Positions 1 to 42,882 of a DNA stretch of 64,000 nucleotides are shown here, piece by piece. The translations under genes were made by a program, and so were the position numbers. Numbering within the stretch: position 1 is the stretch's first letter; every line of letters begins with the position of its first letter. The notes under the pieces are model-generated. The model worked only from the letters and a program-made list of their open reading frames with translations, was not told where the DNA came from and did not search any database. Source of the DNA: Macrostomum lignano (taxonomy: Eukaryota); the NCBI GenBank assembly GCA_002269645.1, contig NIVC01000023.1, positions 1 through 64,000 on the forward strand. The letters are read 5' to 3'.

Positions 1-429
1 TTACTCAACATCTGACTTTACGTTGGTTGAACCGGTCGCGTTCCCATTTATCTGCTTCAGATACCGACATTCTCGTGCTATTTTTAATAGCACCGAAAAT
101 GAATTCCCCGCTCTCTTGGGATTTGTCCCGAGCTCAATAGGTATTGTATTGGAGTGATTCTTTCTTTTTTCTCCCATTTAAATCCTATTTTCCAAAACTC
201 TTGAAGTATAATATGATTTTTTAATAACTTAATTAATTCTTGAAGCTTCTTATTATCCTGAACATTTACAGTACTAAATAAAATTTGGTATGAGATTTGA
301 ATGTTTTTATATTTGATTCTTGTTTAGGAATAGGAATAATAACATTATTTTGCCGCATCGATGGGGATTCTACTAAAAAGCCATTTTATATAGAAATATT
401 TTTATATATAAATATATAAATATTTTTAT

Positions 430-2468
430 TTGAGTAGGAGGTTTTTCCAAATAAGCAGTAGAGGGAAAAACATAACCAAACGACGTACTACCACATACAA
501 CTGCACCACGAATAAAATGTGCAGCATCCGCTCCACCAGTTCGAGCACCAAAAACCCAATAAGGGTCCAGATTTATCTAAAGTTCCCCAAGTTCCACTAT
601 CATATGTGAAAACGTTCTGTCAATGAGGGTAAAGAATCACCAGCAACATTGTATGACTGTAATCGGTACCAAACCCTTTGATTTAAAATATTAATTCAAA
701 TAAATGCCAATCGCCGTTATCAATATTAGCATAGGCTACAGTTTGATCCGCATCACTACTAACATCGTTACGAACCGTAGATCCGTCTGATTTTTTATTA
801 CTCCAAAACAACTCCAAACCTATCATGCCACTCACTGCAAAAACTATCAATCCGGCGTCGGTTGTTAATCCAGTCCCACCTTCCATGTTGGACGTTCGTG
901 ACAATATGCATAAAACCAAACCGCATCTGCACCAGTTCCTGTAGAATTAGCAACTCGGAAAAAGAAAGACGCAGATATATTTTGAAAATGTGTGAAATTG
1001 AATTGTAAAGCACCACTGACCCCACCAGTTTCACGAGTAATTCTAGCTCCGTTTTGATAATCGATATAAGAAGCGTCCCAATTAAAGAACCGACTGGATA
1101 TATATCTCCGGCGGTTGTTGGATTTTGATATCCAGACCAATTGCAAATTACTGGTTCGAACAAGGCCGCATCAATAGCAGGTATTCCATCCAATTTATTT
1201 TTATCGCTTCCAGACATTCTACCATTTGATGTTGGAGTAGCTAGCTGATCTACGTACGCTCGCGGAACTGCAGAAAGTATTTGAGTTGGCCAATTAAGAT
1301 CTTGAATTTCAACACGGTGTTCAAATAATTGTATTTGACGAACCTCGATAGGTTGTGTACCGGTACCACCAGTTGGGAAGAATACGCTATAATATTTCCA
1401 AAAATTAGTCGTTAAATTAGATAGAGCAAATGATGTTGCTTGAACTGGTGATCCCGACGTAGTTAATGTCGTCCATGAATCGGTAGCAACATTTTTTGCG
1501 CGAACCGACCACCCCGAGGGTATCTCAATTGTTTCACTGCCTGTAATTCTTAATTCAAATATTCTTCTATTATAACCTAAAAATTCAAATTGAATTTCCA
1601 TATTGGTTGTGGTTCCGGTATTTGGTGACCATTGTGTCGCAAGGCTTCCATCTCCAACTCGAAAAGCTGTGTTGCCATTTTCAGATGCTGTAAGAACAAC
1701 ATCAGGATTTGAAGTATTTGATGTAAGCGGCGTGGTAAAAATATCGGCGTCGGTTGCATTAGCTCGCTCGTTTACTTGGCCTAGAGTTATCGAGTCTGCG
1801 TTCTCTGTTCCAAATAATAAATTTGTTAATTTAAAATTATTCATATTAATATTTACCACTACGAGTGGCAACTTGATTATCGACATAGTTCTTATCAACC
1901 ACTGAATCACTAGTTGTAATTGAAACATTTATAATTCGGTTGTTGCTCATATCTAGGTTTCCGGTTGCGGTGGTTTGAACATAACGTGAATCAGAATCAG
2001 TTCGAGAATAAGAATCAGTTACATCTCTTTTTAAATTTAATCCATTATCAACTTCGGTTTTGGTATAAGAATCGGCTACGTTCCGTTTCAAATTTAATGA
2101 ATTATCAACTTCGGTTTTGGTATAAGAATCGGCCACGTTCCGTTTCAAATTTAATGAATTATCAACTCTGTTTTGGTATAAGAATCGGCTGTATTGCGTT
2201 TTAAATTTAATGAATTATCAACTTCGGTTTTGGTATAGGAATCGGCTACGTTCCGTTTCAGATTTAGTGAATCATCTATTTGAGTTTTGGTATAGGAATC
2301 TGCAACATTTCTTTTTAAATTTAGTTTAGTATCAACTTCACTTTTTTTATAACCTTCATCTTCATTAATATATCGATTATCTCCAAATGTAACACTTATT
2401 CCACCAGATGTGCCACCACCACCACTACTTGTTGTTCCGTTCCATGAGGGTGTTCCAGAAAATAACAT
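430..2468 (-). pseudogene. Fibre/adhesin-like protein (20-aa stalk repeats, discoidin-like domain, phage tail-fibre motif, L-type lectin-like domain), frameshifted
   Basis: Fragments 2151-2468, 1846-2148, 798-1928, 865-1146, 683-919 and ~430-600 join into one protein. Motifs: LNLKRNVADSYTKTEVDNS repeats; NLDMSNNRIINV..VDKNYVD; AFRVGDGSLATQW..IEVRQIQLFE; NGRMSGSDKNKLDGI; FFFRVANSTGTGADAVWF and, after a 1-nt correction, LLGFGARTGGADAAHFIR. At least five frameshifts. The 3' end is approximate. Confidence 0.7.
2030..2340. repeat. 60-bp coding tandem repeat (~5 copies) in the fibre gene
   Basis: Unit tttaaatttaatgaattatcaacttcggttttggtataagaatcggctacgttccgtttc. One copy lacks a base, causing the frameshift at ~2150. 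Confidence 0.9.
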
Positions 2469-2478
2469 TTTTTACTGT

Positions 2479-2919
2479 CTATTTTATAGAGTCTAAAATA
2501 TTCTTAAATACTTCGGGGTTTACACGAGCTTCATTCGAAAGTCGATATAAAAAATACAACGCCGCTTGCCCGCAATAACTTTTATCAAATGTTTGAAATT
2601 GTTCGTGATGATCTCCACATAAACGATTTTTAGTATGATTAAATTTGTCTTTTATTTCCTGTAACGGAGGAAGCGCGTATGAATCAAAAAAATAAACAAG
2701 TTTAGGTTTGGAATAACTTGCCGACCAATGAACACCATTTTCTTTTGTTGTTTCAATATTAACAATGAAAGATCCATATTGTGGTAAGTCTTTGATCTCA
2801 TCTCGCATAACACATCTGAATGGTTTTATTTTTAACTGCCTCGCCCAATTTGTTAATTCGATATTGCTTGTTGTGTCCGTTCCATATCTTTGTTTAAAAT
2901 CATCCCACGTCATGGTCAT
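2479..2919 (-). CDS. Adenain-like cysteine protease (Polinton PRO)
   Basis: Intact 146-aa ORF with catalytic H-D-Q-C order: GVHWSA, YFFDSY, QFQTFDKSYCG. Confidence 0.9.
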   Translation of the reverse strand: MTMTWDDFKQRYGTDTTSNIELTNWARQLKIKPFRCVMRDEIKDLPQYGSFIVNIETTKENGVHWSASYSKPKLVYFFDSYALPPLQEIKDKFNHTKNRLCGDHHEQFQTFDKSYCGQAALYFLYRLSNEARVNPEVFKNILDSIK

Positions 2920-2920
2920 T

Positions 2921-3124
2921 TTATGTTCCTGAAAAACTCTTGGTTTTAGTTAGTTTCGTAGGTGTGGGTTTTAACAATTCCTTTCTTATTTTATCAGCTT
3001 GTAACTGCCTTAATTTTGCTAGTTCTAGTTCGTAATTATCTTCAGCTTTTTTAACTTTTTCTGATTGTTTTTTTATTAAATTATTATTATCGTGCTTTGG
3101 CGAACATGTTGTTCGATTACCCAT
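2921..3124 (-). CDS. Small basic coiled-coil hypothetical protein (67 aa)
   Basis: TAAAAATG start, abuts the protease gene, heptad-like EDNYELELAKLRQLQADKIRKEL. Confidence 0.55.
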   Translation of the reverse strand: MGNRTTCSPKHDNNNLIKKQSEKVKKAEDNYELELAKLRQLQADKIRKELLKPTPTKLTKTKSFSGT

Positions 3125-3134
3125 TTTTACAGTA

Positions 3135-3920
3135 CTAAACCTGTTTTATACGTAAAATCACTGTTATTGACTGCCCACCAAAACTTATTAATCTATCGCT
3201 TTCATCTACAATCCTAATATAAATTGATTGAACATTATATTGATTTAATGGGTAATATATTGGGGTTTGAGGTGAAACAATCATTTTCTCTCCAATTGGA
3301 ACAGCAAGAAATGGGATTGAATAAATAATTCCACGTTGAACCAAAACTCCATTATTATCTGTTATATAACCACCGTTTGAAATGTCGGTTGTTATATTAA
3401 TTGTATTAACTCCACCCTCAATATTTCCCACTGTATCTCCGGTGCTTGATGTGGTAACTATTCGGGAATTAAATCCAAGTATGGTTCTGAGTGAATTTGC
3501 AATTGTGAAATCAACCTGATATCCGGATCCTAGTGATAGTGTGAATCTGCCAGACGGTAAATCAACACCTATAACAATTGCTCCTGTTACCCAATCACCA
3601 TTAGTTGTTAATTCTCCTTCTATATAAGCATTCAAATCAGTATAGCTATACGCTCCTGGGTTAATGCTAAATGTTGTCCAATTGGCTCCGGAATCTTTAG
3701 AATATCTAAATTGATTATTTGTTGCATTAATTAATTGAGGCATGTTGAAAACCGAAAATAGTATTAAACCTATTTGATAACTTAGGCTTTGATCAAGTTG
3801 TAATGGATCGCGCAATTGAATCCGTTGCTCGCTGGTTGTCATTATAAACTGTAATGTTGTACTAAATTTTGAATTAGTTCGATCTACCAATTGTTTTATA
3901 GTATCTAAATTTGTAGCCAT
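3135..3920 (-). CDS. Minor capsid protein (penton, single jelly roll)
   Basis: Beta-rich ORF (YQIGLILFSVFN, FSINPGAYSYTDLN, SLRTILGF, NTINITTDI, PIYYPL..IYIRIVDESDRLISFGG) resembling Polinton mCP. True start is the TAAAAATG at 3920, not 3968. Confidence 0.8.
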   Translation of the reverse strand: MATNLDTIKQLVDRTNSKFSTTLQFIMTTSEQRIQLRDPLQLDQSLSYQIGLILFSVFNMPQLINATNNQFRYSKDSGANWTTFSINPGAYSYTDLNAYIEGELTTNGDWVTGAIVIGVDLPSGRFTLSLGSGYQVDFTIANSLRTILGFNSRIVTTSSTGDTVGNIEGGVNTINITTDISNGGYITDNNGVLVQRGIIYSIPFLAVPIGEKMIVSPQTPIYYPLNQYNVQSIYIRIVDESDRLISFGGQSITVILRIKQV

Positions 3921-3964
3921 TTTTATAGTGGAAGAATCGGACGAAGTCCGCGTGCTATGCACGA

Positions 3965-4754
3965 TCATTCTTCTTCCTCATTATCTTCTTTTATCAAATT
4001 TGTTAAAATTCTATGTTTCCTTTCTAACCTCGGATTGATATAAATATGTTTGTATTGGCTATCATCCCAAATTTTTTTACACATACTTTTAAATGGTTTT
4101 GCATCCAACCCGGGATTAAATCTAGCGTGTATATTTTGTAAATCATAATTATCTAAATCAAACATTACACAACAACTTGCATTCTTTTTTATAATCGATT
4201 CTAATTCTCTAAAGGACTGTGTTAGATAAAAAGCTCCAATTCCATCTCCTCTACCACTAACAAAAATTTCCTTTTGCAATTCTTGATCGCCGTCATTAAT
4301 ACAATCATCAAATATAATTAGTGTTTTATCATTTTTTGGAATTTTGTCATAGTAATCGGTTTGATATTGTAATTGTTGGGGCTCGATCGGACGAAGTCCG
4401 CGACCCTTCGGGGCGATCGGTGATGTTTTCTGGCTGTTGTGCCATTGTTTTACATAAATCCTCAATGTCTGCTAGATTAAATCGCGGTTCGTCATCATCC
4501 TCATATTGCTCATATGCTCTTAACATTCTAAACAAGACATCTTTTTTTAATTTGTTTTTTAATCCATGTTTAAGAAATTCATAATATTTTATTCTAGGTT
4601 TATTAGTATAAATTATTAAATTATTATAGTCTAACATTCCATCTGTTGTTAATAAATCGTAAACAAAGTGTGTTTTTCCTTTACCTGATCCTCCGATTAC
4701 TAAACAAAGAAAAGGATCGTTTGGAAATATCTTATCGTGTTTTGCCTTTACCAT
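3965..4754 (-). pseudogene. A32/FtsK-like DNA packaging ATPase, one frameshift
   Basis: Walker A GGSGKGKT in 4347-4754; Walker B LIIFDD, YLTQS and IKKNA in 3965-4465. The frame switch lies near 4350. Confidence 0.88.
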
Positions 4755-4803
4755 TTTTAAAGAAATAATTTAAATAGGTGCGACGGTCGGAGACCTGCGC
4801 CGC

Positions 4804-6274
4804 TTACAGCGGGGCGTCCCGAACAATCGTGCCATCAGCTTTAGCAATTGACATATATTCCTCTAGAAACAATACGTGGGCGTCAAGTGCCTGATTACCA
4901 GTTTTATTAATCTCTAACATATAATTAAGTCCAATATTGGCTACGTTTTCTTTCTGTGCCGTTAGATCATAAACAACCACTGGATGAATGTTTAGAAACT
5001 CTGTGGGTGTGTACTGAGGGACGGCATACGCTTCATTTTTAGCATAATCTTGATAATATTTTATAAAATCATTAACATCATTATTTGCAATATTTAGATT
5101 AAGAGGATCTTTAACCGGATAATATTGATCATCAACCTGCAGGCGGATATTCTGAACATTAAACTCGTTAATAGCTGCAGCCGCATTGTCTGTTGCGGTG
5201 GCTGCTTGTTCTGCTATGGCACCCGATTGAAGCCAATATAAATCCCCATTTGCTCTTTTACTCCTTCTGTTTGTTATTTAAACCAAACAAAAATATATCT
5301 CACCCGACGTTTTGATGTCAGTATTTGCCACTGGAATGAATCCTGATTGTTATTAATGGTTCGCATAAAGTGTCTACGATTCAAATAAAATATTTCCTGA
5401 TCATGCGTTAACTGATTATCATGTGTTTTAAAAGTGGGGCTGTTACCTCAATAGTTGGTACGACTAATTGAATTGAATCTATACGAACTGCTATATCGGT
5501 TGAAATTGAGGTTCCATAAAGTATCCTAGGCTGATATCCACCAGATATTTGCAACTGTATCCCAAATTTTAATCCTTTCCATACCCGATTTGGTGAGAAA
5601 AACCCAAATAGTGGAAAGATTGAAAAGTCCTGCTCATATGCTGTTGCTGTGGTTAAAACCGCGACTGGGAATTTATTCTGACGATCTATAAAACCAGTAT
5701 TAATATCTTTTGTATTAGTCATAGTGGTTACAACTGGAACTATGTTTGTATTAAGGTAAACAATTAGCGCTGCAGTATCTGCACCGGCTGCGTTTTGTAC
5801 ATTAGGGAAAACTACTGCTTGACCGTTACCTTTATCCGGCATCCACCCAACATTATCACCAACTTGTTTTGATAAATAAGTATAATTTAAATGTTTCAAA
5901 ACTCCATTAATCTCTGCGGGGTTTGATGATGTCTCAACCTCAGCACCATTAACAGTTAGTTGAGCTTGGGAAAAACATTTATAAAACCAATCATTTTCTA
6001 TTATTATTCCGGATCGATCTGCGATATCTCCGGCTGCAAGAGCAGTTCCATCATTTCTAGTATACAACCATCTAACGCGGAAAAACGCATTTTTCATATC
6101 CAATATAGTGTTGGTTGCGCCGATGTCAAAAGTTACCGTTCCAGTAGTAAAGTTATTTGAATTATCACTTGTTGGTAGGGTATAATTTAAATCTCTTGCT
6201 CTGACCTCATTAATATACTGTCGGTGCTTTTTGAAATGAAATTTATCACTCCACATAGTTTTTGTTTCAGCCAT
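4804..6274 (-). pseudogene. Major capsid protein (double jelly roll), frameshift plus nonsense codon
   Basis: ORF 5408-6274 continues after a 1-nt loss in an A-run (~5427) as QLTHDQEIFYLNRRHF..QWQI..RYIFVWFK*..VQNIRLQVDDQYYP..PVVVYDLT, ending at TAA 4804-4806. Internal TAA at 5274-5276. The reconstructed protein is ~490 aa. Confidence 0.8.
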
Positions 6275-6308
6275 TTTTTTGAGTTAAAAAAGTTTTTTAT
6301 GTTAAAAA

Positions 6309-6983
6309 ATGAGTCAATTTATGGACGTTGATGGAGAGTTAGCGATTTATAAAGAGAAGCAAAGATATTCTGATTTTGTTAGAAATTTACAAAAAAGAAA
6401 GTTAGGAATACAATTAGCGGGTGAAAGATTTGCTGCTCCTTTTGTTAATCCTATTACTGGGAAAATTAGTGAACTAGAAAAAACAGATAAAGATCTTCTG
6501 GAAAAAATTGCTAAAAATACGGAGCCAAAAGAGGATGAAATTTTGGATGAGCCGCCAGCTTATGATGTTGATCAAGCTCAATTGAGAGTTGCAGAGATTA
6601 GACGTGCAGAGCGGGGCGATCGGGAACAATATCCAAGAGTACCAGCTAGTATTGCTGCGACAGATTTAGGTAATAATAATTATCGAATTGGTGGAGTTGA
6701 TAAAAATCGAAATGAACTATATAGAGAATTGGGTGGAGCATTTAATATTATTACGAACCCTAGGGTAAAATTTAACCCTGATTTATATACTAGAGATGAA
6801 TTAGTAAGTGCTAAAATTTTTTACGATGAGTTAGGAGGTGGGGGTGTTAAAAATACCAGCTTGTATAAAAGGATTGTTAATTCTATAAATAACAAACCGG
6901 CTGTTGGAGAAGGATTTAAAACTCCTAGAAAACTTGTTTTAGCTGCCGCGAAAGCTGCTGGACATACAGGAATCGCCCCGTAG
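6309..6983 (+). CDS. Hypothetical Polinton protein (possible core/structural protein), 224 aa
   Basis: Intact ORF divergent from MCP with an A-run ATG. No domain recognised. Confidence 0.7.
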   Translation: MSQFMDVDGELAIYKEKQRYSDFVRNLQKRKLGIQLAGERFAAPFVNPITGKISELEKTDKDLLEKIAKNTEPKEDEILDEPPAYDVDQAQLRVAEIRRAERGDREQYPRVPASIAATDLGNNNYRIGGVDKNRNELYRELGGAFNIITNPRVKFNPDLYTRDELVSAKIFYDELGGGGVKNTSLYKRIVNSINNKPAVGEGFKTPRKLVLAAAKAAGHTGIAP

Positions 6984-7035
6984 GGTCGCGAACCAAAGGT
7001 TCGATTAATTAATTGTTAAATTTATTTTTTATAAA

Positions 7036-7605
7036 ATGGAAACTAATAAGATTTGTACTAAGTGTAAACAAGAAAAACCGATGACGAAAGAATTTTATTT
7101 TTGGAGAAATGATTCAAAAAAAATTAGAAATGATTGTCGATCTTGTCATAATACCTCATCTGCTATTTGGATAAAAAACAATAAAGCTAAATGGAATGAA
7201 TATAGAAAAAATAAGTATCACACTGATGATAATTACAAACATATTGTTTTAATTAGAAATAGAATAAATTGGGCGTTGAAAAATTTTAATGACAAGGACT
7301 ATATCTCATATCTTGGTTGCACAAAAGAATTCTTTTTTGATTGGTTAAATTTCACAAGAAATTATTATGTATCAAAAGATTATACTGGAAAGTTAGATAT
7401 TGATCATTTCATCCCCGCTTCTTCATTTAGTTACAAAGATGATGATCAGATGATAAGGTCTGAAAATTGGAGAAATAAAAGATACTTAACTAGCGTAGAT
7501 AATCGCTATAAAAAAGTTCAACAACCAACCATTGAAGAGTTTGCAAAACAATTGGCGCTATCATGTATTTTTATGGCTATTAAAAATGACCCAAATAGTA
7601 TTTGA
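7036..7605 (+). CDS. HNH-family endonuclease with N-terminal Zn finger
   Basis: CTKC..CRSC zinc finger, then IDHFIP..ENWRNKRYLTSVDNRYK, an HNH-type pattern seen in viral homing-type nucleases. Confidence 0.7.
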   Translation: METNKICTKCKQEKPMTKEFYFWRNDSKKIRNDCRSCHNTSSAIWIKNNKAKWNEYRKNKYHTDDNYKHIVLIRNRINWALKNFNDKDYISYLGCTKEFFFDWLNFTRNYYVSKDYTGKLDIDHFIPASSFSYKDDDQMIRSENWRNKRYLTSVDNRYKKVQQPTIEEFAKQLALSCIFMAIKNDPNSI

Positions 7606-9162
7606 AGGAGGATTTTTAGACTTACAAAAAGGATTAACAAGCTTACCACCAATCTTTACTACTGGTAAATATACAGGGGAACTACACCTACCATCAATGA
7701 ACTTCACAGGTTAACCCGTGGCCTGAGTGAGGAAGGCAATGTCCTTGCTAGTCACTATTTGTGGCGACATCTCCAAATTGCGTGAAACCCGTCATACAGC
7801 TTCAAGTACCACTTCAATTGAGAAATCTTTTGAAGGAACAGAGGTAACTCCTCTTCCCAAAGGTAACAAGCTTGAAGACACGGTGGCAATGCGCAGCCAA
7901 GCTCCTAAGTATTTTAAATATAAGGAGAAGGTTCAGAGAGCAGACGGAGATGGGCGGTAATTTAACCGCTTAAGGTGTGCTCCAGCCTCTTTCGAAAGAT
8001 TGAGGGTAAACTACCCGGCACTCGCTTAGATTTGAGATTAAATCCTGATGACACCCCAAAATCTGATTCAATTCCAATAAATGGGATTGATTGGTTAGCA
8101 TACTATCACGACTTAGCATATAGAGATGCTGACAAGAACCCGCCCGAGGAAGCATTAAGATTAAAACATGAAGCCGATCAAAAAATGATTCAAGGATTAG
8201 ATAACTTGCAGGGATTATCGGTAGGTCAAAAATTAACTAGGTGGATGGTTAAAAAGATCTTGCAGTCTAAAGTTAAATTTGGTTTAGGAATTAATTACAA
8301 CCAACATGGTAATAATTGTGTCGAATGTTTGTTATTAAGTGGTAGTGGGCTAAGTTATGATAAGGCTAAGGTTCTTCATAAAGAATATCGAAAACCTAAA
8401 TTTTATAGAAAAATCATGAACTTCAAAAAGAATGAAATTTGGTATGCTGATTTAATGTCGATGCCGAACGAAAGAGGATATAAATATATCTTAACCATAT
8501 TAGATGGTTTTACTCGATACGCGTGGGCTGTTCCTTTGAAATCCAAAAAAGGAGAGGATGTTGCTGCTGCTTTTAGAAGTCTTGGAGAAAAAAGCGAACG
8601 TTTGTGTGTTGACGAAGGAAAAGAATTTTACAATCCTCATATGTATAAATTATATCATTTTGAAAAAGGACAAGAAAGGAAAAAAGACGCGAATGGGGAG
8701 TATATTAATAAAATTTATTCTATTTATGGAGAGAGTAAAAACGCATTAATAGAAAGATTTAATAGAACTTTAGGTAAGAAATTATGGTTTCAGTTTAGTC
8801 TTAATGGTAACCAAAAATGGGTAAAAATATTACCAGACGTAGTGAAAGATTATAACAATTCATATCATTCGGCGATAAAGATGACTCCTCAACAAGCTTA
8901 TAACAATCCTGAAAACGTTAAAGTTACTTTTGGAAAATTTGAAAAAAATAAAAAGAAATCTTTTAAGGTTGGTGATTCTGTTTATATCTATAAATGGAAA
9001 GATAAGTTTGAAAAAGGAAGAAAAGGATATTGGAAGATAAGTGAGAAATTTACTATCAGTAAAGTTTTAAATACCAATCCTACAACCTATATAATTGCTG
9101 ATAAGGACGGTGAAGAAATATTGGGTTCGTTTTATGAGAACCAACTAATATCAGCGAACTAA
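7586..9162 (+). CDS. PLA2-like domain fused to rve (DDE) integrase; two exons 7586-7711 and 8014-9162 (424 aa)
   Basis: Splicing restores ELHLPSMNFTG|PGTRLDLRL..INGIDWLAYYHDLAY (parvovirus-VP1-type PLA2 motif). Integrase triad WYADL / LCVDEGKEF / LIERFNRTL and Polinton-type C-terminus YIIADKDGEEILGSFYENQL. Confidence 0.9.
7712..8013 (+). ncRNA. Group I self-splicing intron, subgroup IC1
   Basis: P1 CAGGU/GCCUG with U.G at the 5' splice site; P2.1 GUCAC/GUGGC; P3 CAUCUCC(7768-74)/GGAGAUG(7946-52); P4 UUGCGU/GCGCAG; P5a CUUCAAG/CUUGAAG; L5b GAAA; P6a with CCUAAG..UAAGG receptor; P7 G-A-GAGCA/UGCUCC; P8 GCGGU/ACCGC; P9 CCUC..GAAA..GAGG; P9.0 AG/CU. P/Q/R/S elements AAAUUGCGUGAAA, AAUGCGCAGC, GUUCAGAGAGCA, AAGGUGUGCUCC. 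Confidence 0.95.
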
Positions 9163-9172
9163 GTTCGAACAA

Positions 9173-9427
9173 TTACTTGAGACAACATGGTAGTAAATTT
9201 TTTATAACAAACAAAAACAATATTATTACTATAATTGTTACTAATATTATTATTGACATTTGTTCAACTGTTATCAAACTTAAATTTTCATTAAGTTCAT
9301 TAATCGGCACATTTCCGATGTAGGAATAATCGTGCAAAGCACGCGAACCATGGGTTCGATTTACCTTCATTTTTTTATATATATTTTTCACAATAAATGT
9401 CGTTTCTGTTATAGAATAATAGTTCAT
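9173..9427 (-). CDS. Small single-pass membrane protein (84 aa)
   Basis: C-terminal hydrophobic helix IIILVTIIVIILFLFVI followed by KNLLPCCLK; A-run ATG start. Confidence 0.6.
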   Translation of the reverse strand: MNYYSITETTFIVKNIYKKMKVNRTHGSRALHDYSYIGNVPINELNENLSLITVEQMSIIILVTIIVIILFLFVIKNLLPCCLK

Positions 9428-9443
9428 TTTTTAAATATTTTTT

Positions 9444-9758
9444 TCACATAAAAATTTCACTTTCATTCTCTGAATCACTGGTTTCATATGAACTATTTGT
9501 TGATTCGGAATCTGTTGATCTAACCTCCCAATCATCCGAATTTAAATAATCTCCAAGTTGAAATATTAACTCACCCTCTTGTTCTAAATCATACATCTCA
9601 TCTAGCTCTAATGGATAAAGTTTTAGGTCGTGCTTGTCGTCATATTTTAAATAAACTTCATCAATTATTCCATTCAAAATATGTTGTTTTATTATCTCTG
9701 CATTTTTAGCAACAGTCTCAAAAGTATCACTAACAGAAAAGGTGTAAACTCGGGTCAT
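9444..9758 (-). CDS. Acidic hypothetical protein (104 aa)
   Basis: Intact ORF, TAAAAATG start, D/E/S-rich tail. Confidence 0.6.
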   Translation of the reverse strand: MTRVYTFSVSDTFETVAKNAEIIKQHILNGIIDEVYLKYDDKHDLKLYPLELDEMYDLEQEGELIFQLGDYLNSDDWEVRSTDSESTNSSYETSDSENESEIFM

Positions 9759-9820
9759 TTTTAGTAACAGAAAAAGACCCTTCGCGCCTGCGGCGCGGGC
9801 TAGGGGTTATAGAGTAGTAG

Positions 9821-10076
9821 TATAGAAAAAGACGCTTCTAGATCAGACCTTATTTTAATGACCGTTTTTATGGTCTTAAGAGGGGGGACGCGAGGGGGGT
9901 GTTGGGGAGTGTTTGGAAGTGTTGGGAAGTGATTTTTATTGTTAGGGGTGATTATGGGTGATTAGATGTGTTAAGGGTGTTTAGATGTGTTTTTTTATTT
10001 ACCCCCCGTGTCCCCCCTCTAGACCCTTAAAACGGTCATTAAAAAAGTGCTCTGGGTCTAGAAGCGTCTTTTTATA
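9821..10076. repeat. Imperfect inverted repeat (fold-back) at the element boundary
   Basis: Arm 9821-9900 is approximately the reverse complement of 10001-10076, around a 100-nt loop. AGTAGTAG lies immediately upstream (9813-9820). Confidence 0.9.
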
Positions 10077-10162
10077 TGGGGGCGATTTTGTCAGGGGGCG
10101 ATTCTGTCAGGGGGTGATTCTGTCAGGAAGCGATTCTGTCAGGGAGTGATTCTGTCAGGGGC
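10077..10162. repeat. 16-bp minisatellite (cagggggcgattctgt), ~5 copies
   Basis: Direct tandem copies sharing the ggggcgattct core with the 24722-25820 array. Confidence 0.85.
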
Positions 10163-15558: not shown

Positions 15559-18523
15559 TTACTCCTTCCTGCTGTAAACCTCAAACCGAAATGGGATTCC
15601 ATGCTCGCGCATCTCCCCAGACACCGATTCCAGTTTAAACAGTTCGTCTAACGAATCCATTGGGAAAAAACGATCTGCAGGCAAATCACATAGCACCCTA
15701 GTCAGGTGAACTCGTTGACAAGTTGCCATGGTTACGGCGCTTCGATAAATCTCTTGGCCACCCATAATCCAGACAGTTGGAGATGCCAAGCGATGATTAG
15801 CCAACCATTTCGCGTAATCCAATGCCGATTTTAGACTAGGCAGCATCGTAAACGAATTAGCGCTTATCTTCTTAGCAACGGTTGCCATGCGAGAACCGAT
15901 CACCAGGTGAATTCGGCGCGAATCTAACGCTAAATTAATTGGCATAGTTTCGAATGAAACTCGACCGGAGATGTTGACAACTGGCAACGGTTCGAGTTCG
16001 TCCATCTCGTGATCGTTTCGAGTGTTTCGAGTGAAATATTCAACATCCAGCATCAGATTTGGCCACGGAAGCTGCGTACTGTTTGCGAAACCGCCGTTTG
16101 AGTCTAGGGCGGCTACTGAGACCGCTAAGGTGAGTTCATTGAGCTTATCCGCGCCAATGTGACGCCACATGCGCAGACGAACCAAAGGGTTTTGGGGTGG
16201 ATTGACGCCCAGCAATGAAGGCGCCTCTTCCTGCCAATGGCTGGAAATTATAGCGAGTTAAATGGTCTGAGTCACGGGTGATGATTCAGGGGATGTAAGG
16301 AGACGTTATGATGATGATTAAGGGAGTGTAAGCCTCAGTCTGGTGATGATTCAGGAGGATCAAGCCTCAGTCTGGTGATGATTCAGGAGGATCAAGCCTC
16401 AGTCTGGTGATGATTCAGGAGGATCAAGCCTCAGTTTGGTGATGATTCAGGGGGATCAAGCCTCAGTTTGGTGATGATTCAGGAGGATAAAGCCTCAGTT
16501 TGGTGATGATTCAGGAGGATAAAGCCTCAGTTTGGTGATGATTCAGGAGGATAAAGCCTCAGTTTGGTGATGATTCAGGAGGTTCAAGCCTCAGTTTGGT
16601 GATGATTCAGGGGGATCAAGCCTCAGTTTGGTGATGATTCAGGAGGATCAAGACTCAGTTTGGTGATGATTCAGGGGGATCAAGCCTCAGTTTGGTGATG
16701 ATTCAGGAGGATAAAGCCTCAGTTTGGTGATGATTCAGGAGGATAAAGCCTCAGTTTGGTGATGATTCAGGAGGATAAAGCCTCAGTTTGGTGATGATTC
16801 AGGAGGTTCAAGCCTCAGTTTGGTGATGATTCAGGGGGATCAAGCCTCAGTTTGGTGATGATTCAGGAGGATCAAGCCTCAGTTTGGTGATGATTCAGGG
16901 GGATCAAGCCTCAGTTTGGTGATGATTCAGGAGGTTCAGTATTCCTCAGTTTGATGATTCAGGGGGATCAAGCCTCAGTTTGGTGATGATTCAGGAGGTT
17001 CAGTATGCCTCAGTTTGATGATTCAGGGGGATCAAGCCTCAGTTTGGTGATGATTCAGGGGGATCAAGCCTCAGTTTGGGGATGATTCAGGAGGACCAAG
17101 CCTCAGTTTGGTGATGATTCAGGGGGATCAAGCCTCAGTTTGGTGATGATTCAGGAGGATCAAGCCTCAGTTTGGTGATGATTCAGGAGGATCAAGCCTC
17201 AGTTTGGTGATGATTCAGGAGGATCAAGCCTCAGTTTGGTGATGATTTAGGAGGATCAAGCCTCAGTTTGGTGATGATTCAGGAGGATCAAGACTCAGTT
17301 TGGTGATGATTTAGGAGGATCAAGCCTCAGTTTGGTGATGATTCAGGAGGACCAAGCCTCAGTTTGGTGATGATTCAGGAGGTTCAGTATTCCTCAGTTT
17401 GATGATTCAGGGGGATCAAGCCTCAGTTTGGTGATGATTCAGGAGGTTCAGTATTCCTCAGTTTGATGATTCAGGGGGATCAAGCCTCAGTTTGGTGATG
17501 ATTCAGGAGGTTCAGTATTCCTCAGTTTGATGATTCAGGAGGTTCAAGCCTCAGTTTGGTGACTATTCAGGAGGTTCAAGCCTCAGTTTGGTGATGATTC
17601 AGGGGGATCAAGCCTCAGTTTGGTGATGATTCAGGGGGATCAAGCCTCAGTTTGGTGATGATTCAGGGGGATCAAGCCTCAGTTTGGTGATGATTCAAGG
17701 GGGATCAAGCCTCAGTTTGGTGATGATTCAGGAGGACCAAGCCTCAGTTTGGTGATGATTCAGGAGGTTCAGTATTCCTCAGTTTGATGATTCAGGGGGA
17801 CCAAGCCTCAGTTTGGTGATGATTCAGGAGGTTTAGTATTCCTCAGTTTGATGATTCAGGGGGATCAAGCCTCAATTTGGTGATGATTCAGGAGGTTCAG
17901 TATTCCTCAGTTTGATGATTCAGGGGGTTTAAGCCTCAGTTTAGAATTTACCTTTTATCGCTAATTCTCTGCATCCAGATATCCTTAATTGGGCATTCCA
18001 GACGGTCTCCGTTGCCACACTCGGGCGACATTATCTGCAGCGCTGCGAACCTGGTCAACAGGCAACTGCGGCCACTCAGACTCGGTACAAAGAGGGGTAC
18101 CGCCTGCAGCGGCGAGTCAGCTTCTCGACTATTGACAAACGAATATTTAGCAACCATTGAGCACGACTCAGCCACAGCGGAATAGATCTGAGGCCGATCC
18201 TCGTTAATATCAATTTGCATCTCGATGTTACCAGCAGATAAATAAGTCGCTTTTAATTTGTTTGAATTGCAAGATTCCAGGAAAGCAGATGTTAATGTGA
18301 AATTCGATGATTTGCAACCACTAGTGCACTCGTCTGCGGACAGTGGAACAAGATTCACCTGTTCAGGCATTGGCGTCCGCGTTGCTATGGCAACGGCAGA
18401 AGAGATGACGTCATTCGCTAACCGATGGTTGACAGTTACTAAATCGATTGGGCAACCATCTGGTCCGTAGGTGCCAATGACTGTTAGCTGATAGGCTCGC
18501 GGAGTGCAAAAGGAATCTGTCAT
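15559..18523 (-). CDS. DHFR: Divergent dihydrofolate reductase with long N-terminal extension; exons 17952-18523 and 15559-16240 (417 aa)
   Basis: DHFR motifs QLPWPNLMLDVEYF, SGRVSFETMP, VWIMGGQEIY, VHLTRV..ADRFFP, FRFEVY. A phase-2 GT-AG intron (16241-17951) joins the exons in frame. An acceptor at 18545 allows a further upstream exon or a trans-spliced leader. Confidence 0.8.
16278..17941. repeat. 32-bp intronic minisatellite
   Basis: Unit ggtgatgattcaggaggatcaagcctcagttt fills almost the whole DHFR intron. Confidence 0.95.
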
Positions 18524-40200: not shown

Positions 40201-42462
40201 AAGACACTAAAATGCACATTGAGACATACTAAAGGACACATTAATAAAACGTCCTAAAAGACACATTGAGACATACTTAAAAGACACATTAAGATATACT
40301 ATAAAATATACATTAAGACACTAAAATACACATTGAGACATACTAAAGGACACATTAATAAAACGTCCTAAAAGACACATTGAGACATACTGAAAGACAC
40401 ATTAAGATATACTGAAAGACACTAAAAGACACATTGAGACATACTAAAGGACACATTAAGATGTAGTAAAGTACACATTCAGACATGCTAAAAGACAGTG
40501 AGACATACTAAAGGACACATTAAGATGTAGTAAAGTACACATTCAGACATGCTAAAAGACACATTGAGACATACTAAAGGACACATTAAGATGTAGTAAA
40601 GTACACATTCAGACATGCTAAAAGACAGTGAGACATACTAAAGGACACATTAAGATGTAGTAAAGTACACATTCAGACATGCTAAAAGACACATTGAGAC
40701 ATACTAAAGGACACATTAAGATGTAGTAAAGTACACATTCAGACATGCTAAAAGACACATTGAGACATACTAAAGGACACATTAAGATGTAGTAAAGTAC
40801 ACATTCAGACATGCTAAAAGACAGTGAGACATACTAAAGGACACATTAAGATGTAGTAAAGTACACATTCAGACATGCTAAAAGACACATTAAGATGTAG
40901 TAAAGTACACATTCAGACATGCTAAAAGACACAGTGAGACATACTAAAGGACACATTAATCAAACGTACTAAAAGACACATTGAGAGATGCTGAGACAGG
41001 CACAAAGACCAGTTAAACAAAGACTATCCCTTATCACAAACCCGCCAGGTTGAAATGGGCTTCACCAAAGAGGACGCCACAGCGGCCCTGATTAGCTGCA
41101 ACATGAATGTGGATCTAGCTCTGAACGAATTGCGAGCCAGAGTTGGTGGCGTCAGCGCTAATATGGCGCACCAGATGGGCCAGCCGCCGCCACAGCTGCA
41201 GCCGCCACCTCTCGGACACCCGATGCAGCACCCGCCACCGCTTGGTGGACCGCCTCCGTCGATGTCTTCGCATCAGCAGCAGCAGCAGCAGCAGAGGCCG
41301 ATATTTCCTGGAGGCGGCGGTCAAGCAGTGCGCTCTGGAGTGCCGCAGCAGCAGCAGCAGCCAGGACAGGCCAATCCCGCTAGGGATCTCATGCGGGATC
41401 AGATCATCCAGCAGCTTAGACTGGCCGTACAGAATCGCATAATCTCGCCTAACACGCTGATGCCAAACCAAAATATGAGTCAGGCAGATCTGAAATTGGT
41501 TCACCAATTGATTTTCCATCAGAATCAATTGCACGCGTTGACTGCTCAACAGCAGAAGATTGCTAATAGTATGCGCTCTATGCCGCCAGCTGGTCCGTTC
41601 AGCGGCGGCAGCGGCCCGCAGCAGCAGGCCAGCGTACAACTGCAGGAAGTCAATCAAAAGATTCTGCAGTTGAAGACTACTATTCAACAGTTGAGTCAGC
41701 AGCTGCAGGCCCGATCTGGTCCGAATCAGCCAGCCGGTCTGCCGCCTACGCATCAGCCGCCGCCGATGCAGCAGCAACAGCATCAGCTAGTCGATCAATT
41801 GAAAAGTCTGGACGTTGGCGAGTCTGCAAGTGTTGGAGTTAGAAGCCGCTATGATGCTTGGAATAGGTTTGTTAACTTCTTGCGCTAAATAGGGAATTAA
41901 GGCTTGGGCTGGGACCTGGATTGGGACTTTTACTGTGGGACCTGGAGTGGGACTTTTAATGTGGGACCTGGATTGGGACTTTTACTGTGGGACCTGGATT
42001 GGGACTTTTACTGTGGGACCTAGATCCCGTCAATTTATGAATAACATTATTGAATTGTTATTAATTCCGTCCAGGTCGCCAGATGTACCCGAAGCGGCTT
42101 CCATGTTTGGCAAGCCGCCTCTGCATTCCAGCGTGTCCAATCCTAGCCTTCAGCAGCAGCAGCAGCTCCAGTCGTTCCAACGTTCCTTTTCGGAAATGCC
42201 TCCAGGAAGCGGCGGCGGAGGCGGCGGCCTAATCTCTGGCGAAGTGATGGATAAAATCCCAGAATTTGTGCCTGGCCAACCCTGGGCTGGCGGCTACAAA
42301 GACGGTTTATTCTCTGTCACCCACGAGACTCTCGAGCAGCATTTGAATTCTGGCTTGTCAACAGCTGGCGAAGCTGTTTCTTCTAGTAGCGGCAGCAGCA
42401 ACAGGGCTGTGAACCGGCCTCCGCCGCAGCAGCAGCCAGTCGGCGCCGGGACTCGCTGGCAG

Positions 42463-42514
<52 letters not shown>

Positions 42515-42882
42515 GTTGCCTACTAATTCGTCAGTTAAATCCGCAGATTAACCGTGAAGTATTAAGCATGATTTGCAATCAGCAGGGCCGGGTGCTGGCC
42601 CTACAAGTTGGCCCAGTTAACCAGTGGGCCATGGTGAAATTCGCCACTAAAGAAGAGGCCGACAAAGCGCATAAGAATATTAGCAGCCTGGCTCAGCATA
42701 TTGTGCTGATTGGCGATGCTGAGGCCGAGGCCAGCGTTGCCGCTCTGCTAGCTGGCGCCGCTCCGCCGCCGATGCCGCCGCCGCCGTCTCTTCCACCGAC
42801 TGTGCCGCCGTCAGCTTCGGCTTTGACAGCCGGTTGGCCAACAGGCGGCTGGGGTGACCAGGGTGGCATTGAGCCGATGTGA
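37225..42882 (+). CDS. TNRC6: GW182/TNRC6 (gawky) miRNA-silencing scaffold; exons 37225-37234, 37310-38628, 41049-41866, 42075-42882 (984 aa)
   Basis: GW/WG-rich N-terminus, LIESIVNSNDGWGCKPINQTTPWDV, UBA (NLIRHL|VEMGFTKEDATAALISCNMNVDLALNEL), Q-rich region, PAM2-like IPEFVPGQPWAG, C-terminal RRM. Exon phases are consistent; the first micro-exon is less certain. Confidence 0.92.
38815..41000. repeat. Complex intronic satellite
   Basis: aaagacacatt(c/g)agacatactaa-type subunits with higher-order repeats filling the TNRC6 intron. Confidence 0.92.
41905..42021. repeat. 26-bp minisatellite, ~4 copies
   Basis: Unit gggacctggattgggacttttactgt in the last TNRC6 intron. Confidence 0.88.

Follow-up and report, generated by a model that had tools for sequence, protein, structure and literature searches.

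A flatworm Maverick whose PLA2-integrase gene is interrupted by a group I intron of IC1 architecture, with a candidate restriction-type nuclease partner

What is the 302-nt insert that interrupts a viral gene at positions 7712-8013 (+ strand) of the window, by which we mean the whole 64,000-nt stretch of DNA analysed here, and how is it maintained at this site? Two reviews, in their available text, place nuclear group I introns exclusively in microbial eukaryotes, and there in genes for rRNA (PMC3679873, PMC8395846). The preliminary description of this locus had claimed a group I intron with IC1 architecture and had proposed a covariance-model comparison as a check. A local Rfam scan matched RF00028 over 7702-8004 with 63.3 bits (E 1.6e-15; all 253 model positions), above the gathering score of 50, and covariation was strong, both of which support the claim. 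The whole-window Rfam scan with gathering and fast filters returned 0 matches, the intron being lost to the filter.

The interrupted gene encodes a PLA2-integrase. Exon 1 (7586-7711, + strand) consists of 42 whole codons ending in NFTG, and exon 2 (8014-9162, + strand) is a 382-codon frame that starts with PGT and encodes the rest of the PLA2-like domain (PF08398, 19 bits, below the cut-off) and a retroviral-type integrase (PF00665, 32.8 bits). The intron lies between the Gly and Pro codons of the PLA2 Ca-loop, and its excision exactly restores the conserved gene, of which many full-length intron-less database relatives contain both families in a single protein and have the motif uninterrupted. 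Intron-less alleles are present in the same genome, with a gap of zero between exon 1 and exon 2 in 8 of 150 exon-2 matches; one such junction was read in sequence L179. Since these alleles join the two exons directly, the intron boundaries are exact, and the claim that removing 7712-8013 restores NFTG|PGT agrees with them to the base. We regard it as virtually certain that 7712-8013 is a real group I intron; the best explanation is a functional or recently functional intron of IC1 architecture, which we refer to as type A without an ORF and which ends in A.

All of the core helices named in the preliminary description were found on the + strand. P1 (7707-7725) includes the U of the Gly codon GGT that ends exon 1, and this U forms the U.G pair U7711.G7721, which was kept in 15/15 rows covering it. 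P2 and P2.1 occupy 7727-7765, with both sides changed in 4 of the 7 P2 pairs. P3 has 7 bp and forms a pseudoknot with P7, which contains a G-C guanosine site (G7938-C7982) and a bulged base; P7 itself is formed by 7936-7942 and 7978-7983 and lies with the P3 3' strand and P8 in 7936-7983. The P4-P6 domain (7779-7932) contains P5abc (7800-7877). The features used for IC1, taken in part from PMC8395846, were all found: P5abc with an A-rich bulge, an L5b GAAA (7822-7825) docking in the P6 receptor CCUAAG/UAAGG (7904-7909, 7921-7925), and P2/P2.1. P9.0, P9 and the terminal A8013 make up 7984-8013, and P9.1/P9.2 were not seen in the window intron.

Covariation was counted over 19 hand-picked, related introns from the same site, using the structure of the window copy and excluding P4 and P6b. 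In this set 96.8% of 1428 cells paired and 35 of 79 pairs were changed on both sides; none of 500 shuffles did as well, and slid partners paired in only 36-49% of cases. P4, counted separately with two rows shifted by one column, had 5 of 6 pairs changed on both sides, and P2, P3 and P5c still covary within type A. The G-C pair of P7 and the A-U pair below it were invariant in 19/19 introns, and the remaining four pairs covary. The preliminary account of the P7 variant needs correction in one respect: the variant is no peculiarity of the window intron, as it recurs in giant-virus introns. Covariation over related rows lends support to the fold and is not to be read as a probability. Plain minimum-energy folding gave a z of -1.8, which is weak evidence alone; the proposed nested structure, extended under constraint, reached -90.0 versus -92.6 kcal/mol, and P10 is weak (-3.3 kcal/mol).

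The last intron base, A8013, departs from the family rule of a terminal G (omega G), a point on which the preliminary description was silent. Type A loci ended in A in 39/51 cases and in G in 12/51, and type B loci (see below) ended in G in 26/26. The window copy was classed as a variant because it lacks the terminal G; its terminal-G sisters follow the rule. The terminal A is common to the divergent copies L185-L187, and a natural intron ending in A reportedly self-splices in Coxiella. A tie between the P7 variant and the terminal A was considered and rejected, as the variant also occurs in 12 type A copies that have a terminal G and the giant-virus introns L189 and L191 appear by eye to end in G.

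The carrier of the intron had been described as a Maverick in an animal nuclear genome; this was confirmed, and the element is integrated at many places there. The first 10 kb of the window contain the capsid, ATPase and integrase genes by which Mavericks/Polintons are recognized. A double jelly-roll major capsid gene lies at 4804-6274 (- strand) in two broken frames, with a PF21738 match on 4804-5277 (E 2.6e-4), 5408-6274 being inferred to be a capsid part from its position. An A32-type packaging ATPase gene, also in two broken frames, lies at 3965-4754 (- strand) with weak PF04665 matches in both pieces; the capsid and ATPase matches are below curated cut-offs. A probable maturation cysteine protease at 2479-2919 (- strand) had no match in library profile searches and is presumed to be one from motif resemblance. 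The right terminal region (9822-10077) is an imperfect 256-nt hairpin with inverted arms, and the element ends at 10077. The contig starts inside the element, and only the right end lies in the window; this end is sharp and shared, matching having stopped at 10077 in 36 of 39 other scored copies and at 10073 in 3. A protein-primed DNA polymerase B was located ~10 kb upstream of exon 1 in sister copies such as C2140, C2506, C3109, C4889, C3469 and C506.

The intron region gave 198 candidates in the 764-Mb genome, the 40 that were scored being 94-100% identical, and copies sit inside contigs of 0.27-1.24 Mb. Because the copies end at the same base, continue in other DNA and lie within large contigs, they represent independent insertions; the flatworm genome holds well over a hundred integrated copies of this Maverick (polintovirus). 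An ORF in the flank, 5.5 kb from the element end, is 98% identical to a Macrostomum lignano UniRef protein over 30% of its length, and the stretch was present in 20 runs of 7 studies (2015-2024) under one organism label, none of the runs being listed as RNA. The host is most likely M. lignano, the assignment resting on that one flank match. The interrupted gene is viral and does not belong to the host, which qualifies the earlier statement on a nuclear protein gene of a bilaterian.

We paired 150 exon-2 matches (of 488 candidates) with 150 exon-1 matches (of 241). The gap between exons was zero in 8 pairings, 297-338 nt in 132 and longer in 2, and 8 were unpaired; the two longer gaps measured 1.2 kb (C249:319471-320639) and 7 kb (C986:361191-368232). 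The empty junction of L179 has an open frame. Intron-less, ORF-less-intron and ORF-bearing-intron alleles coexist in one genome, and three different ribozymes (types A, B and C) use the one insertion site. The preliminary description had noted neither the intron-less alleles and the two further ribozyme types nor the nuclease and the GGNCC target treated below. Type A loci were selected for their resemblance to the window. Type B (28 RF00028 matches, 73-91 bits; 836-895 nt) is inserted at this site too, but in a Maverick lineage that is more distant, and has a canonical P7 and an ORF in the P2.1 loop (L035). In type C, which accounts for 23 of 150 copies by its spacing of 324-328, P3, P4, P6 and P7 are rewritten with compensatory changes, with a P5abc common to types A and B, and RF00028 scored only 32 bits (L180:29-354, L181; C904, C87). 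Its 3' junction was common to 5/5 copies read, without a clear reading frame across it, and type C is possibly a chimera.

An optional 30-nt insert at the P5c-P5a junction produces a 333-nt class (L065, L081, L187, L035); its occurrence in both types A and B is a sign of recombination among the introns. A related intron with an ORF was found at the same site in an unrelated JGI metagenome contig (L089; 80.6 bits, terminal G), indicating that the system is not confined to the flatworm genome.

We then asked whether the intron is spliced. Among stop-free sequences, pN/pS was 0.125 for exon 1 (13 distinct terminal-A sequences) and 0.065 for codons 1-50 of exon 2, which precede an internal ATG (11 terminal-A sequences); the type B values were 0.21 and 0.61, the second of which draws on a small number of copies, some of them damaged. 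These ratios indicate that the exons are under purifying selection, and since exon 1 reaches the catalytic part of PLA2 only via splicing, its selection counts in favor of splicing. The exon-1 Gly codon was GGT in 79/79 parsed intron copies (L010, L050, L056 and L089 excluded) and GGC in the single intron-less allele read (L179). No 7711-8014 joint was found in contigs of four runs (three guessed to be RNA, one of unknown type) over 6300-9200, where the intron was covered; contigs lose rare forms and break at copy variants, and the missing joint is no evidence either way. Junction reads need care because intron-less alleles mimic spliced RNA. Splicing in at least some copies is quite probable.

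Three alternatives bear on this reading. The terminal-A, ORF-less intron of the window could be dead for splicing, its copies spreading in defective form or making only the integrase from an in-frame ATG at 8185, which opens 325 codons containing that domain. The terminal A beside an unchanged G-site and the broken capsid and ATPase genes of the window copy would fit such a loss, and the four contig sets without a junction, neutral as they are, would be compatible with it. We nevertheless consider it unlikely, as purifying selection acts in terminal-A copies on exon 1 and on the PLA2 portion of exon 2, both of which precede 8185, helices P2, P3 and P5c of type A go on covarying, divergent copies share the terminal A, and the Coxiella intron is said to self-splice with this base. 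Spliceosomal removal from the GT at 7710, with the ribozyme fold left as a relic, is very improbable: AG|GTTAAC at 7708-7715 is donor-like and an animal host has the machinery, but 7966-8059 offers a single in-frame AG acceptor, which would make 8030 the first exon base and cost the invariant PGT-L residues and which is missing from other copies, and spliceosomal removal would not preserve the covariation of the catalytic core. There is likewise very little to be said for a protist or algal contaminant or an assembly chimera. Polinton-like viruses of protists are known to carry group I introns, and the host label depends on the single UniRef match of the flank ORF; against this stand the location of copies inside contigs of up to 1.24 Mb, the 39 other copies that share the end and then run into other DNA, the decay of many copies, and the consistent label across the runs and studies.

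The ORF of type B (L035:1092-1775) encodes a nuclease (L035:1092-1580) that matched PF09553 (Eco47II) with 31 bits against a cut-off of 25.9. Its predicted structure was confident over residues 1-166, with pLDDT >90 over 138 residues; the closest folds were those of EcoO109I (E 7e-5, Z 9.9, rmsd 4.4, 177 aligned, against 7.6 in the next row) and AvaII (E 5e-4). A PDB sequence search with the nuclease gave no match, and an NCBIfam search was blank. The PD-(D/E)xK fold and the family match place the protein with type II restriction endonucleases of the GGNCC group: EcoO109I is described as cutting RGGNCCY and AvaII as cutting GGWCC (PMC7337904), and Eco47II-type enzymes are assigned GGNCC (PMC10305163). 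The ORF continues through P3, P4 and P5abc until its stop codon in P6. Ribozyme-derived tails of this kind are present on at least 9 database proteins, indicating that gene callers recorded these introns unnoticed.

A free-standing form of the nuclease (L066:2180-2683), 64-68% identical to the type B ORF, misses the Pfam threshold. Of 137 close copies, 36 have it in the slot that precedes exon 1; the remaining 101, including the window, have an HNH gene there (this count leaves out 13 exon-1 matches that lacked a partner or belonged to the distant lineage). In the window the slot holds a free-standing HNH/endonuclease VII-like gene at 7036-7605 (+ strand; phrog_1035, E 2.9e-8). This gene is highly variable (54-100% identity), and its protein falls into unnamed viral clusters in the Atlas. 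All 36 free-standing nuclease copies adjoin an intron, and 3/3 close intron-less copies have HNH in the slot (by chance about 0.4; the copies are closely related); a link of the nuclease with the intron rests on these three intron-less copies only, too few to prove it. In a midpoint-rooted tree the intronic and free-standing flatworm nucleases group together (93/83, not starred), which gives no direction of movement.

Distant relatives of the nuclease (27-39% identity) were adjoined by a C5 methylase in 14/14 loci tested, of 89 fetched, and four loci were labelled as giant-virus MAGs. No C5 methylase was found on the nuclease-bearing contigs, the 12 C5 matches of the genome lying on 9 other contigs, and N4/N6 methylases had no match in the genome. 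The flatworm nuclease was not classed as a restriction-modification system because no cognate methylase was found.

The PLA2 Ca-loop is forced to contain GGNCC, because Gly-Pro codons (GGN CCN) always do, and the intron splits this GGNCC after its third base. Within the element part of the window (1-10077) GGNCC occurred 1 time versus simulated means of 13.4 and 10.6, and 0 of 300 simulations were as low; in the host flank it occurred 165 times versus 115 expected. Around the intron it was absent in 48/48 type A loci and occurred 3 times in 26 type B loci (two damaged copies), counts in which the copies share ancestry and are not independent. It was equally absent from copies with HNH and with the nuclease in the slot. 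Avoidance of GGNCC is not unique, because two other 5-mers are also depleted in 1-10077: CCNGG (4 versus 14) and CCNTA (12 versus 33, stronger by z-score). A second nuclease pressure on the element is possible. GCNGC was enriched in the same interval (23 versus 9). PLA2-integrase relatives were not found in IMG/VR, hence there was no control Maverick without the nuclease lineage. GGNCC counts in loci of the distant nuclease relatives were mixed (378 versus 525 pooled). Depletion of Gly-Pro was tried as a further indicator of avoidance among 120 related proteins and proved uninformative (top 60: 5 outside the Ca-loop and 35 in it versus 49 expected).

Homing endonuclease sites are typically long (14-40 bp). 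Avoidance of a 5-mer points to a short site, and since an enzyme cutting at 5 bp would do great damage to host DNA, the nuclease must either stay silent while the element is integrated or recognize a longer sequence. From its family, its fold and the distribution of GGNCC, the nuclease is probably aimed at the GGNCC junction.

The main competitor to this assignment keeps the intron as real and lets the neighboring HNH/endonuclease VII gene drive its homing in collaborative fashion, with the restriction-type nuclease an unrelated gene that degrades host DNA or acts against competitors and with the GGNCC match incidental. The HNH gene is the one present in most slots, the window included, and its wide range of identity resembles that of selfish nucleases; collaborative homing by free-standing enzymes is moreover established in the cited part of PMC3984707. 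The three close intron-less alleles nevertheless all carry HNH beside an uninterrupted site that such an enzyme would cut, and it is the restriction-type ORF, not HNH, that is intronic in type B, in L089 and in the database proteins with ribozyme tails. We judge homing by HNH to be rather improbable.

The best explanation of the locus as a whole, and in our assessment a fairly likely one, is that a captured restriction enzyme has one target which the element cannot avoid, and that a mobile intron masks it. The RNA would fold and be spliced out by the two-step guanosine pathway, terminal-A copies perhaps slowly or with help from the host. The nuclease would cut GGNCC, and an intron that splits the forced Ca-loop site would make intron-bearing genomes immune; co-infecting or resident copies without the intron would be cut at nearly their only site and either be destroyed or be repaired from an intron-bearing copy, which would amount to homing. 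The window copy, with HNH in the slot and no nuclease in cis, would be a passive, protected passenger.

The intron and the nuclease may have come from the giant-virus gene pool, acquired in a free virus stage and carried into the germ line with the element. This origin is inferred because the P7 variant recurs in that pool and because of the relatives of the nuclease there: the variant with a matching 3' strand was found in 3/4 IMG/VR pattern matches, beside RPB1 or NCLDV capsid genes. The P1/P2 pattern had no match in IMG/VR, and INPHARED phages gave only 48-nt core matches. Giant-virus contigs L188 (14-305; 2751-3091), L189 and L191 have group I introns in capsid and RPB1 genes, and an antisense HNH/NUMOD ORF overlaps the 5' part of the second L188 intron.

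A stronger version, 'restriction without modification', falls somewhat short of an even chance in our view. In it the five-base enzyme would serve both as a weapon and as a homing enzyme, with its site purged from the genome, the forced one hidden by a ribozyme, and no methylation; the immunity intron would splice in animal nuclei despite its terminal A. The genome would then keep the whole series, from the empty allele through the ORF-less intron with an adjacent nuclease and the intronic nuclease to a third ribozyme with a rewritten core.

Comparison with known systems delimits what is new. Like nuclear rDNA introns of the IC1 class (Tetrahymena LSU type), the flatworm intron has the P1 U.G pair, P2/P2.1, P3-P9, P5abc with the GAAA loop and receptor, and a G-C guanosine site with a bulged A; it differs from them in lying in a viral protein gene of an animal host, in the terminal A of most type A copies, in the P7 variant and in a short P9 region. 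Group I introns have been described in polinton-like viruses within protist nuclear genomes (cryptophyte, Paulinella, Desmodesmus; PMC12220804). They resemble the present case as RF00028 introns of ~300-380 nt in small integrating nuclear dsDNA viruses. The available text of that paper restricts them to a few protist groups, locates them in a short gene ahead of the one for the capsid and identifies no nuclease, whereas the flatworm case concerns an integrase-bearing Maverick of a bilaterian, a PLA2 gene, and a candidate nuclease with its target.

Introns in essential genes of giant viruses have been proposed to mask a nuclease target and to harm competitors (Bodo saltans virus, in the cited portion of PMC5871332). 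Giant-virus introns share the P7 variant and P5abc with the flatworm intron, but their enzymes are HNH or GIY-YIG, whereas the flatworm enzyme has a type II restriction fold and an apparent 5-bp site that is rare through genome-wide avoidance. Collaborative homing and six homing-enzyme families are reviewed in PMC3984707. The flatworm system resembles phage collaborative homing in having a nuclease beside an ORF-less intron, or within the intron, apparently aimed at the insertion site; unlike it, both states and the empty allele occur in one eukaryotic genome, and the enzyme derives from a restriction-modification pair minus its methylase. With Eco47II, EcoO109I, AvaII and the restriction-modification pairs of giant viruses the nuclease shares the Pfam family, the fold, a D...ELK motif and relatives next to C5 methylases; it differs from them in having no methylase and in lying inside or beside an intron, its specificity being predicted.

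PLA2 genes are described in the adintovirus paper, whose available text contains nothing on such an intron (PMC8502044); group I introns come up only in passing in two further Polinton papers, and an invertebrate iridovirus paper reports none. Our search of the main texts of open literature found no report of a group I intron from animal Mavericks or chromosomes; supplementary tables S11-S12 of PMC12220804 could list animal-hosted elements. The earlier claim of a new setting is overstated in part, since such introns in polinton-like viruses of protist nuclear genomes were already published. New, within the reach of this search, are the host realm, the type of partner enzyme, and the terminal-A and core-rewritten sisters.

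With more than 100 copies in a protein gene of bilaterian chromosomes, ribozyme splicing from an animal nuclear mRNA becomes testable. As a restriction enzyme with a short site that owes its specificity to site avoidance, the nuclease would represent a new type of homing enzyme. The copies show proposed stages in the birth of a mobile intron side by side, and the terminal-A, terminal-G and core-rewritten sisters offer natural comparisons for ribozyme chemistry.

Several minor features of the window were also recorded. Hairpin-like inserts at 6960-7010, at 4385-4420 and near 7589, with an inverted match between 4396-4417 and 6972-6993, are intergenic, similar in sequence and variable among copies, and may be terminators or mobile mini-elements. 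A fibre-like gene contains a 57-nt coding repeat (19 residues, ~6 copies) at 2008-2339 (- strand). The flank at 10734-59758 contains >20 different tandem arrays with periods of 4-66, of which most long ORFs are by-products; between tandem arrays lies a dihydrofolate reductase ORF (15559-16170, - strand; PF00186, E 4e-13), part of which matches a flatworm UniRef entry, and UBA and RRM matches were found at 41055-42882.
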